A stretch of 64,000 nt of DNA from SAR86 cluster bacterium AG-422-P06 (lineage in GTDB: Bacteria; Pseudomonadota; Gammaproteobacteria; Magnimaribacterales; TMED112). The position numbers and the translations under genes were made by a program. Position 1 is the stretch's first letter; each line of letters opens with the position of its first letter. Shown here piece by piece: positions 17,041 to 19,493 of this stretch. The notes beneath the pieces were generated by a model. It saw nothing but the letters and a program-made list of their open reading frames with translations. It had not been told where the DNA came from and ran no database searches. The stretch is taken from assembly GCA_003213455.1 (NCBI GenBank), contig QCMX01000001.1, positions 1,667 through 65,666 on the forward strand, given 5' to 3'.

Positions 17041-17117
17041 GGGTCTGTAGCTCAGTTGGTTAGAGCGCACCCCTGATAAGGGTGAGGTCGCCGGTTCAAA
17101 TCCAGCCAGACCCACCA
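17041..17117 (+). tRNA. tRNA-Ile (anticodon GAU), CCA encoded
   Basis: Folded by hand. Acceptor GGGTCTG/CAGACCC, D arm GCTC-AGTTGGTTA-GAGC. Anticodon arm CACCC-CTGATAA-GGGTG, with GAT at 17075-17077. Variable loop AGGTC. T arm GCCGG-TTCAAAT-CCAGC, with one C-A mismatch at 17092/17104. Discriminator A, then CCA. Confidence 0.9.
17076..17117. repeat. Left 42-bp direct repeat (attL-like), which is the 3' part of tRNA-Ile
   Basis: ataagggtgaggtcgccggttcaaatccagccagacccacca is identical base for base to 19440-19481. Confidence 0.9.
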
Positions 17118-17263
17118 CTCCCAGAAAAGGTTTAAATCCACGCAAAAATCATATAGATTTACTGATTGAGCATTTGACAGACATTCAAAAGCAAAAACAG
17201 AAGATAGAAGAAGATAAACTACGGTGATTAATGGTGGTAAAATTAGTTATTTACATATAAAAA

Positions 17264-18355
17264 ATGGCAAAAGACTTACACAACGCAAAAAAAAGCAAGC
17301 AAGATGATTTTTATACACAATTAACTGATATTGAAAAGGAATTAAAATATCACAAAGAAAGCCTTAAGAACAAAACAATAATTTGTAACTGTGATGATCC
17401 AAGAGTAAGCAATTTTTTTCATTATTTTTCCTTTAATTTTGAAAGCCTGCAATTGAAAAAGTTGATTTCTGTTTGTTACAAAAACCAATCAAAAGACTTA
17501 TTTACAAGAGAAGATAAAGATAAGGCAATTTACCTTATATATGAAGGTGACAAAAATAATGACAATATACCCAATGAGGATGAAATTGACGTTTTAAACC
17601 TAAACGGAGACGGAGATTTTAGAAGCCAAGAGAGTATAGAACTACTAAAACAGGCAGATATTGTTATTACAAATCCACCTTTTTCATTATTCAGAGAGTT
17701 CATAGCACAAATCATGCATTATGAGAAAAAGTTTTTAATTATTGGAAGTGTTAACGCAATAAACTATAAAGAAGTTTTTAAACTTATCATGGATAATAAA
17801 GTGTGGCTGGGAGCAAGCATTCACTCTGGAGATAGAGAATTTGGGGTACCTAAAGACCTAGTAACAAGAAGTAAAAGTTTAAGAATTGATGAAGAAGGTA
17901 ATAAATTTATAAGTGTTCCAGGTATAAGGTGGTTCACTAATCTTGAGTATGCTCAAAAATATGAAGATCTAATTCTCTATAAAAAATATAACCCTGAAGA
18001 GTATCCTAAATATGATAACTATGATGCTATAAATGTGAACGTTACAAAAGAAATACCCATGGATTACTCGGGCATAATGGGAGTCCCAATTACATTTTTA
18101 AGCAAATATAACCCTGATCAATTTGAAATTTTAGGCTTATCGCAAAAAGTTGGATATGGACTTGAGAGTACAAAGTTTTATGATGAATATGAAGAGACAA
18201 GACAGGATGGAACAAAAACAGGAAGTTCTGGTAAGAAGACAAATGGGAACCCGGTTATGAAAGGAAAACCTAAAAAAGGAAATTATTATGTCAAAGGTGA
18301 AGATATTGTTCATTCTTTGTATGGGAGAATTTTCATAAGAAATAAAAGGTTATGA
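17264..18355 (+). CDS. N6-adenine DNA methyltransferase, EcoRI-methylase family
   Basis: 363 aa. DDFYT (aa 14-18), IICNCDDPRVSNFF, the catalytic TNPPF (aa 136-140, nt 17669-17683), and the C-terminal GVPITFLSKYNPDQFEILG block typical of this family. Confidence 0.8.
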   Translation: MAKDLHNAKKSKQDDFYTQLTDIEKELKYHKESLKNKTIICNCDDPRVSNFFHYFSFNFESLQLKKLISVCYKNQSKDLFTREDKDKAIYLIYEGDKNNDNIPNEDEIDVLNLNGDGDFRSQESIELLKQADIVITNPPFSLFREFIAQIMHYEKKFLIIGSVNAINYKEVFKLIMDNKVWLGASIHSGDREFGVPKDLVTRSKSLRIDEEGNKFISVPGIRWFTNLEYAQKYEDLILYKKYNPEEYPKYDNYDAINVNVTKEIPMDYSGIMGVPITFLSKYNPDQFEILGLSQKVGYGLESTKFYDEYEETRQDGTKTGSSGKKTNGNPVMKGKPKKGNYYVKGEDIVHSLYGRIFIRNKRL

Positions 18356-19434
18356 AGATAGAAGAAATAAAGCTTTCGGTAAAAGATTTATCAGATGGTT
18401 ATGTAGATAAGCTTGAGGAAGGTGTATTAGGGTACTCTGGAAAATTAGACATTAGACCGCCATACCAAAGAGAATTTGTTTACAACGATAAGCAAAGAGA
18501 TGCGGTGATAGATACTATTTGGAATGTATACCCACTAAATGTGATGTATTGGGCAGTAAGAGAAGATGGTGGTTTTGAAATAATTGATGGCCAACAACGG
18601 ACAATATCTATTTGCCAATATATTAATGGCGACTTTTCATTTAATAAACGATACTTTTCTAATTTAGAGAATGATGAAAAAGATAAATTGTTAAATTACG
18701 AATTAACTATTTACTTGTGTAGTGGAACAGATAGCGAAAAGCTTGCGTGGTTTGAAACTATCAATATTGCAGGAGAAGAATTGTATGCTCAAGAGCTCAA
18801 AAATGCTGTTTATCATGGTTCATGGGTTTCAGATGCAAAAAAATATTTCAGTAAAAATGGTTGTCCAGCAAAAGGGTTAGGTGGTGACTACTTAACTGGT
18901 GCAGCGATAAGACAAGACTATCTTGAAACTGCAATTAAATGGATAAGTAAAAACAATATCAAAGACTATATGGCTGAAAATCAACATAACGCTAGTGCTG
19001 TTGATTTATGGAATTACTTTAGTTCGGTTATCTCATGGGTTGAAGCTACATTCAAGACCTACAGAAGAGAAATGAAAGGTATAGACTGGGCATTTCTTTA
19101 TGATGATTTTAAAGATAAAAACTTGAACCCAGATGAGCTTGAAATAGAAATAAAAAAACTTATGCAAGATGACGAAGTCCAGAAGAAAAAAGGTATATAT
19201 GAGTATGTTCTTCGTAGAGATGAGAAATTTTTAAAGCTAAGAACATTCACAGATCAGCAGAAAAGAGAAATGTATGAAAAGCAAGATGGTCTTTGCAATA
19301 TTCGCAAAAAACCATACCCAATAGAAGAGATGGAAGCTGACCATATAACTCCTTGGTCAGAGGGAGGTAGAACAATTGTTGAGAATGGTCAGATGATACA
19401 CAAAGAGGAAAATAGAAGAAAATCAAATAAATAG
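18352..19434 (+). CDS. DUF262 (GmrS/ParB-Srx-like, DGQQR) - HNH nuclease
   Basis: 360 aa. PPYQREFVY (aa 36-44), IIDGQQRT (aa 77-84, DGQQR at nt 18586-18600), and the C-terminal His-Me finger EADHITPWSEGGRTIVENGQMIHKEENRRK. Its start overlaps the methylase stop (ATGA, 18352-18355). Confidence 0.8.
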   Translation: MKIEEIKLSVKDLSDGYVDKLEEGVLGYSGKLDIRPPYQREFVYNDKQRDAVIDTIWNVYPLNVMYWAVREDGGFEIIDGQQRTISICQYINGDFSFNKRYFSNLENDEKDKLLNYELTIYLCSGTDSEKLAWFETINIAGEELYAQELKNAVYHGSWVSDAKKYFSKNGCPAKGLGGDYLTGAAIRQDYLETAIKWISKNNIKDYMAENQHNASAVDLWNYFSSVISWVEATFKTYRREMKGIDWAFLYDDFKDKNLNPDELEIEIKKLMQDDEVQKKKGIYEYVLRRDEKFLKLRTFTDQQKREMYEKQDGLCNIRKKPYPIEEMEADHITPWSEGGRTIVENGQMIHKEENRRKSNK

Positions 19435-19439
19435 ATTTA

Positions 19440-19481
19440 ATAAGGGTGAGGTCGCCGGTTCAAATCCAGCCAGACCCACCA
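19440..19481. repeat. Right 42-bp direct repeat (attR-like), a partial tRNA-Ile 3' copy
   Basis: Perfect copy of 17076-17117. It starts 5 nt after the nuclease stop codon and ends 12 nt before the next ATG. There is no 5' tRNA half upstream, so it is not a second tRNA gene. Confidence 0.9.
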
Positions 19482-19493
19482 TTTGAGATAAGT

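Follow-up and report, generated by a model that had tools for sequence, protein, structure and literature searches.

Genomic islands that enter tRNA genes by site-specific integration are recognised by a regenerated tRNA gene, a signature that has been described together with an anticodon-centred class of attachment (att) sites comprising about half of the islands in the Islander collection (PMC4383910; sublocation classes of Williams 2002). Here, we report on a 2.3-kb islet at tRNA-Ile(GAU) in a 64-kb stretch of DNA from a SAR86 (TMED112-like) bacterium, the whole of which is referred to as the window. The islet carries a predicted type II restriction-modification (R-M) pair and no integrase gene. 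Like the tRNA gene (tDNA) islands of Islander, it has a regenerated tRNA gene and, oriented in the same way, the displaced 3′ fragment, and its apparent crossover lies in the anticodon loop. Among the features by which tDNA islands are defined, the repeat of the tRNA 3′ end and an empty attB were both found, and an internal integrase was not. Since an integrase gene within the island is a precondition in Islander, islets of the SAR86 type are filtered out by it.

Elements that have kept their att sites and in which integration genes are absent are known as cis-mobilizable elements (CIMEs) (PMC5704250). The SAR86 islet resembles them in retaining attL and attR without genes for integration or transfer, and an integrase with the right specificity might in principle excise or co-mobilise it. 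CIMEs were, however, defined for decayed conjugative elements of Firmicutes, usually in tandem with an integrative and conjugative element (ICE) or an integrative and mobilizable element (IME) (PMC5704250), whereas the islet has no conjugative context and no tandem partner, and consists of 2.3 kb with a single R-M operon. A further comparison is with the tycheposons and their degenerate remnants in the genomic islands of Prochlorococcus (Hackl et al., bioRxiv 10.1101/2020.12.28.424599), which share with the islet the streamlined marine host, tRNA-targeted cargo, partial tRNAs at the ends and, in the degenerate remnants, the lack of an integrase. Tycheposons are nevertheless defined by integrase and replication modules, neither of which the islet has; a recombinase and a replication protein accompany only certain relatives of the cassette (L024 and L154, below), and no SAR86 parent was found.

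A mode of R-M acquisition called 'insertion with long target duplication' reportedly goes back to work by Nobusato in 2000. As later delimited, it comprises inserts of R and M genes only, below 20 kb, flanked by a duplication of more than 30 bp (Furuta 2010, PMC2853133), and its mechanism is still unexplained (Kobayashi's group, PMC2853133). The islet likewise consists of an R-M pair without any other mobility gene between direct repeats longer than 30 bp. The targets of long target duplication are arbitrary and of variable length, in contrast to the islet repeat, which is the segment of a tRNA gene from anticodon loop to CCA, and repeats at tRNA segments were ascribed by the same authors to site-specific recombination (PMC2853133). 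An individual parallel is the unit PD1606-1608 of Xylella fastidiosa Temecula1, an R-M system with an integrase in a tRNA gene (Furuta, Abe and Kobayashi 2010, PMC2853133). Both consist of type II R and M genes at a tRNA 3′ end, the X. fastidiosa unit between perfect direct repeats of 45 bp and with an empty site in a sister strain, and they differ in that the X. fastidiosa unit holds a (weak) integrase homologue and the SAR86 islet none. The islet is, in this light, a small example of an already known type of mobile DNA and not a new mechanism.

A restriction-modification islet in tRNA-Ile(GAU)

The intact tRNA-Ile gene (17041–17117, forward strand, as are the other features of the islet described here) was called as GAT by both ARAGORN and Rfam (RF00005, 70 bits), with the anticodon at 17075–17077. 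Its last 42 nt, ATAAGGGTGAGGTCGCCGGTTCAAATCCAGCCAGACCCACCA, running from the second anticodon base (position 35) through CCA (17076–17117), recur at 19440–19481. The 42-mer has exactly two copies in the window, in the same orientation and identical at 42/42 nt; no third copy was found in the window when up to three mismatches were allowed, and none of 100 shuffles matched (0/100). Read as attachment sites, the tRNA gene would be attL, composed of the host 5′ part and a regenerated 3′ part, and the right copy would be attR, the displaced 3′ fragment of the host tRNA. From the junctions, attP would read as the end of the restriction endonuclease (REase) gene, ATTTA, the 42-mer and CTCCCAGAAAAGG, and attB as the tRNA followed directly by TTTGAGATAAGTATG.

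Between the repeats there are only two open reading frames (ORFs), for a methylase and an endonuclease. They are preceded by a leader, or left arm, of 146 nt (17118–17263), which starts with CTCCCAGAAAAGG and whose beginning, TCCCAGAAA, is similar to the arm start TCCCAGAGA of a second tRNA-Ile islet (L034, below). The first ~108 nt of the leader had no relative in any fetched locus, and a blastn-short comparison of all 146 nt with these loci and the window matched only a conserved promoter-like stretch of 16–18 nt. An extended −10-like element, TGgTAAAAT (17235–17243), is conserved 5′ of the methylase gene in three other loci (L031, L034 and L049) and may be the promoter of the R-M operon. 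The leader also contains a tandem AGAAGATA motif with a period of 10 nt (17199–17218), possibly an arm-type recombinase site. This is the only such pair in the left arm, and the only candidate on the right side is a look-alike within the conserved coding end of the REase gene (19407–19426), which matches the tandem at 16/20 positions (empirical p ~0.01). Non-coding DNA on the right side is confined to the 5-nt spacer ATTTA (19435–19439), so that the right repeat begins 5 nt past the TAG stop; it ends 12 nt ahead of the ATG at 19494 of a host gene for a purple-acid-phosphatase-like metallophosphoesterase (19494–21050, forward strand).

A preliminary description, made from the letters of the window alone, had given the coordinates of the tRNA and of the repeats, their perfect identity and the start at the second anticodon base, all of which were reproduced with ARAGORN, Rfam and a repeat scan. 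Its counts of a 146-bp leader, two overlapping genes and gaps of 5 and 12 nt were likewise correct. It had also called the islet integrase-less. ORFs of the window were read by eye (at least 60 aa between 10 and 26 kb, at least 120 aa in the remainder) and a home-made hidden Markov model of tyrosine recombinases was run on those of at least 120 aa; neither approach brought a tyrosine recombinase to light in the 64 kb, and this part of the description stands as well. The cargo, on the other hand, had been missed, the two genes having been left unidentified.

With Pfam, scanned with four proteins of the window, and PADLOC, the predicted cargo of the islet is a complete type II R-M pair. The first gene (17264–18355) encodes an EcoRI-family N6-adenine DNA methyltransferase of 363 aa with an NPPF motif (PF13651, full length, E=7e-134; PADLOC MTase_II). 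The second (18352–19434), which overlaps the first by 4 nt (ATGA), encodes a candidate restriction endonuclease of 360 aa with an N-terminal GmrSD_N/DUF262 domain (DGQQR; PF03235) and a C-terminal HNH domain (PF01844), and its product matches PADLOC REase_II over the full length (1–372/372, E=3e-123). Across ten homologues of the nuclease, residues D79–R83 (DGQQR), D330, H331, N345 and N354 do not vary. The ratio of nonsynonymous to synonymous substitution rates (dN/dS) was 0.03 for the methylase (against L014) and 0.05–0.09 for the nuclease (against its closest relatives). Judged from the sequences, both genes are full length and under strong purifying selection, and the low ratios indicate that both have been kept functional. 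No named or solved homologue of the pair was present in PDB or NCBIfam. The nuclease family is very large and conserved, with at least 65% identity along 360 aa between phyla, and it occurs also on plasmids and phages; relatives in phage and plasmid collections did not exceed 70% nucleotide identity. Like other type II systems, the pair would probably act as an anti-phage defence and penalise its own loss, and this probably explains the persistence of the islet.

With the flanking saccharopine-dehydrogenase-like gene as query, SAR86 (TMED112-like) genomes were retrieved, and six related species with the same synteny, spanning 75–91% nucleotide identity, were found to have an empty site; the islet is present in the window genome alone. 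In four of them (L001, with ~91% nucleotide identity, L005, L007 and L011) the match to the window breaks off after 17117 and starts anew at 19440, and in the other two (L002 and L003) the tRNA end CCCACCA is followed directly by TTTAGGATAAGTATG. The phosphatase ATG lies 12–14 nt past the tRNA in the empty-site relatives. The islet is therefore a lineage-specific insertion. The preliminary description had read the repeat as the footprint of a tyrosine integrase and had pointed to an unoccupied site in relatives as the means of checking it; the footprint is borne out by a repeat from anticodon loop to CCA, a regenerated tRNA and these six empty sites. It had further taken the perfect repeat as a sign of a recent event. 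Nearly all SAR86 relatives, however, have the 42-mer unchanged, even where the flanking gene is only ~70% identical at the protein level, and its 42/42 identity consequently gives no age.

The T stem of the SAR86 tRNA-Ile has a C:A mismatch (GCCGG/CCAGC; window 17089–17105), which is kept in nearly all relatives. The tRNA-Ile of L011 (11214–11290) has another T arm, which is fully paired (GGAGA/TCTCC). The lower G+C of the islet, an earlier impression from single lines of sequence, amounts to 31.9% against 34.1% for the window (sd 1.5% for segments of 2.3 kb). This corresponds to the 8th percentile of such segments and is not significant, and anomalous composition was rejected as a mark of the islet.

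Related cassettes at other tRNA genes and on small elements

Metagenomic R-M loci were surveyed by a systematic scan of 80 loci, supplemented by look-ups (the fetched loci carry L-numbers). In the closest relatives homology to the window covers the two genes and ~15–35 nt upstream only, while the flanks differ. At the nucleotide level it is restricted to 17249–19433 (89%) in L014–L016 and to 18121–19433 (93%) in L110, the closest relative of all. This confinement to the genes and a short upstream stretch indicates that the R-M pair moves as a discrete module.

Four further islets of this kind were found at tRNA genes. In L014 the islet adjoins tRNA-Ala(GGC) and is bounded by a perfect 45-nt repeat from anticodon loop to CCA, located 126 nt past the stop; the islet in L032 lies at tRNA-Gly(GCC) with a 47-nt repeat containing one mismatch, that in L034 at a second tRNA-Ile with a repeat of at least 40 nt, and that in L059 at one further tRNA, of which the T arm and acceptor are repeated. 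All four are recombinase-free and fully covered by their contigs. When loci were clustered at 95% identity, integrase-less tRNA islets made up five of the ~55 assessable clusters, the window included. The repeat ends at the tRNA 3′ end or within 2–3 nt of it in five of five tRNA islets, and begins in the anticodon loop in all three in which both starts are visible (Ile, Ala and Gly), while in L059 it begins in the T arm. Tandem motifs of 10–12 nt are found in both arms of the four islets outside the window (TGGACACAAG, GTATGTCC, ATTGGGGAA and GGGTATGTA), which is the layout expected of arm-type integrase sites and marks them as candidates for such sites. Of the by-products of the analysis, the most interesting is that this same bare R-M arrangement is met again and again, at five tRNA genes in all.

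Other members of the family are associated with recombinases. A 70% relative in L024–L029 is located ~1 kb from a tyrosine integrase of 224 aa, with a replication protein also present, and serine recombinases adjoin the R-M pair in L154 and L157. Integrases lie directly downstream of the pair in L072 and in the provirus L124, and in L110 an excisionase-like HTH_17 gene is found directly 3′ of the nuclease gene. Small marine elements, integrative or replicative, often carry the R-M cassette.

Larger and smaller versions occur on one backbone (L015 vs L024 and L014; L150 vs L032). Positions 1–418 of L015 and 3375–3792 of L024 are 97.8% identical upstream of the cassette, L015 has the window-like allele, and the R-M alleles on this shared backbone are only 67–80% identical; the cassette thus appears to have been swapped at one fixed site of the backbone. 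L032 and L150 have tRNA-Gly, left arm and R-M pair in common at 99.4% and unrelated right-hand parts, and L014 and L016 are 99.96% identical with different left junctions. From these comparisons it is evident that such islets have recently been rearranged and moved in a modular fashion.

Further arrangements were encountered in the fetched loci. The left junction of L016 (93–141) contains a tRNA-like minihelix of 41 nt, GGGGATAAGCTGGTTCCAGTTTTGAACCAATAGCTCCACCA, which is not tRNA-Ala and has only its last 11 nt in common with the tRNA. The two contig ends of L060 are repeats of one another (19–213 and 10859–11053; 127 + 67 nt), suggestive of a circular element of ~10.8 kb with an R-M pair. In L070 (7811–8240) a tandem ATAGGGTAGCA motif lies beyond the R-M pair, and next comes a tRNA-Gln(CUG) gene, encoded on the other strand and with its 3′ end toward the pair; the second copy of a repeat was not found in this locus, which may be another tRNA islet with inverted cargo.

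Origin of the islet

With moderate confidence, we favour the reading that the islet arose by an integrase-type insertion in the anticodon loop and is now a non-autonomous, CIME-like remnant, probably stranded and kept by the defence and addiction properties of its R-M system. A compact type II R-M operon, composed of an m6A methyltransferase, a DUF262-HNH endonuclease and its own promoter-like element, would have been carried by a small integrative element whose attP mimicked the 3′ part of tRNA-Ile. In one SAR86 lineage a tyrosine integrase would have joined this element to the chromosome by strand exchange within the anticodon loop of tRNA-Ile(GAU), so that the tRNA would have been regenerated (attL) and the host's original 3′ 42 nt pushed to the far side (attR). 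The recombinase is absent today, either because the rest of the element was deleted or because the cassette was delivered in trans, and the window copy would accordingly be a remnant of, or a delivery by, a small marine element. Since no recombinase is encoded, the islet is predicted to be non-autonomous, and with a right arm of only 5 nt it is probably stranded.

Several observations weigh against this reading. Neither a recombinase, nor a pseudogene remnant, nor a helper carrying this att site came to light, and the integrase step is read from the footprint. No tyrosine recombinase was found in 12 SAR86 loci, and an autonomous element with the same att specificity was encountered neither in the window nor in these loci nor in IMG/VR. 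Exact scans of IMG/VR gave 0 matches for the 42-mer, 0 for the 25-nt end of the T arm and 0 for the arm motif of L014, and the core-plus-arm junction pattern gave 12 matches, all by chance and none beside a tRNA-like arm. No larger parent with the leader of the islet was found, and the exact islet is held by the window genome and its own read set alone. The islet is without a right arm and clear motif pairs, unlike its four analogues. Moreover, same-family R-M pairs lie between non-tRNA direct repeats of 36 to ~120 nt in three loci (L061, 918–953/3356–3391; L066, 755–877/4078–4200; L084, 5–89/2420–2504), and thus a second route of insertion exists for this R-M family.

Two leads toward a parent element were followed and dropped. 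The HTH_17 gene of L110 belongs to a very abundant family of marine phages and satellites, whose contexts (L112–L118) had no link to tRNA-Ile, and a 65-aa backbone ORF of L015 formed one cluster that led back to the L024 element and to no parent. A P4-type integrase is encoded in L115, a 9.2-kb contig found via the same excisionase-like family; ATGATGACC arm repeats occupy its two ends (1–130 and 9060–9100), and it is probably a circularly permuted marine integrative element. A transposon was rejected as the origin of the islet, there being no terminal inverted repeats and a duplication of 42 bp being too long for a transposase. An integron cassette was set aside on anatomy alone, without a search for attC sites, the boundary being a tRNA-derived core.

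Among the alternatives, an active minimal satellite is a possible though doubtful one: a tyrosine integrase specific for tRNA-Ile, supplied from elsewhere in the genome or by an infecting phage or satellite, would act in trans to excise the att-flanked cassette and insert it again. Retention of arm-type motif pairs on both sides of the four analogous islets points in this direction, as do the near-identical islets in different contexts (L014/L016; L032/L150, with a diverged host flank) and the resemblance of the leader tandem to the 3′ end of the REase gene. A contig from the Logan collection, L111 (SRR7041131_177), is compatible with a circular form, for it corresponds to window positions 17089–19451 and with 2363 nt is one repeat period (2364) minus 1 nt; its read set (SRR7041131) also yields the exact REase protein. 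Logan contigs are presumably built at a word length of k=31, and a repeat of 42 nt, being longer, would give the shape of L111 without any circle. Mobilisation in trans had been offered in the preliminary description as an alternative to recency, and no positive evidence for it was obtained: the helper is missing from the 64 kb, the 12 SAR86 loci and IMG/VR alike, the right arm measures 5 nt, and the exact islet occurs in one genome only. The same contig bears on the very unlikely case of an assembly artefact, in which the assembler would have run a separate 2.36-kb circle with one 42-mer into the chromosome by way of the shared repeat, or would have produced a second repeat that does not exist. 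L111 comes from the same run and represents the islet alone, cut within the repeat at both sides, and a 42-nt repeat is beyond short-read graphs at small word length. Against this stand the deposited 139.7-kb contig, which is unbroken across both junctions, the lack of a replication function on a circle with R-M genes only, and at least four independent metagenomic contigs with the same integrated architecture at other tRNAs. L111 itself is 100% identical to the window, and in it the SAR86-specific T arm adjoins the leader.

An R-M pair might also have been inserted without an integrase, by long target duplication, with the tRNA as a chance target. The insert of R and M genes only and the duplication above 30 bp agree with this mode (PMC2853133), and the three loci with non-tRNA repeats show that the family is not confined to tRNA sites. 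It is nonetheless unlikely here, as the repeat bounds coincide with tRNA landmarks in five independent cases, a known signature of integrases (PMC4383910), and the insert includes ~108 nt of leader that belong to neither R nor M gene. The least probable explanation is a reversed polarity, in which the islet is ancestral and was lost from the relatives by recombination between the 42-mers. Deletion between direct repeats would give exactly the empty site that is seen, but all six related SAR86 species with synteny are empty, and the closest relatives of the R-M pair are found in unrelated contexts. Insertion is far more parsimonious than repeated loss.

Surroundings of the islet and its bearing on plankton genomes

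A promoter-like site, TAGACT-16-TATAAT (17001–17028, forward strand; from a consensus scan only), is located 5′ of the tRNA gene, and no terminator-like site was predicted between it and the phosphatase gene. The tRNA-Ile(GAU) gene and a tRNA-Ala(UGC) gene (32205–32280) are stand-alone genes 15 kb apart, and there is no rRNA in the whole 64-kb window, though these two tRNAs usually occupy the 16S-23S spacer. A cluster at 21081–24548 looks like a thiamine-salvage operon: a thiamine pyrophosphate (TPP) riboswitch (Rfam, 59.8 bits) is positioned directly 5′ of genes for a TonB-dependent receptor, a PnuC-like transporter and a kinase-like protein. The tRNA-Ile neighbourhood is variable on the upstream side too, as a segment of ~6.8 kb separates the saccharopine-dehydrogenase-like gene from tRNA-Ile in some SAR86 loci only (L002, 11270–17905; L003, L006, L010 and L013; 2.2 kb in L009). 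This segment encodes a 988-aa secreted repeat protein, a TonB-dependent receptor, a protein similar to ArsC and low-molecular-weight (LMW) phosphatases and a MIP channel, and it is absent from the window and from L001, L005, L007 and L011.

In SAR86 and similar streamlined bacteria of the ocean, recognisable mobile elements are scarce, and little is understood of the ways in which defence genes are acquired. The locus described here is a cleanly delimited gain, at a tRNA gene, of what looks like a working R-M system, with sister species that are empty at the same site. Because the cassette family recurs as integrase-less islets at four or more other tRNAs as well as on small recombinase-bearing elements, the observations suggest that such genes commonly settle in plankton genomes by integrating at a tRNA site, with the recombinase subsequently lost or absent. 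Island finders that depend on an integrase miss such islets by design.

It is tempting to go further, at low confidence, and to regard minimal att-flanked R-M cassettes as hitch-hikers without an integrase that recur as a class among marine bacteria, moved between tRNA genes by the integrases of co-resident elements. On this speculative view, the tRNA-derived core of such a cassette would be accompanied by short arms containing repeats that bind a recombinase, by a promoter and by genes for a methylase and a DUF262-HNH nuclease. If hitch-hikers of this class exist, their integrases would be supplied by co-resident phages, satellites or tycheposon-like elements, and the arrangement would be similar to integron cassettes but at tRNA sites. 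Mobilisation in trans, if shown, would amount to a simple, cassette-like exchange system for defence genes. For streamlined plankton such as SAR86, these hitch-hikers would then provide a route of defence-gene exchange that is hidden from integrase-requiring island finders.

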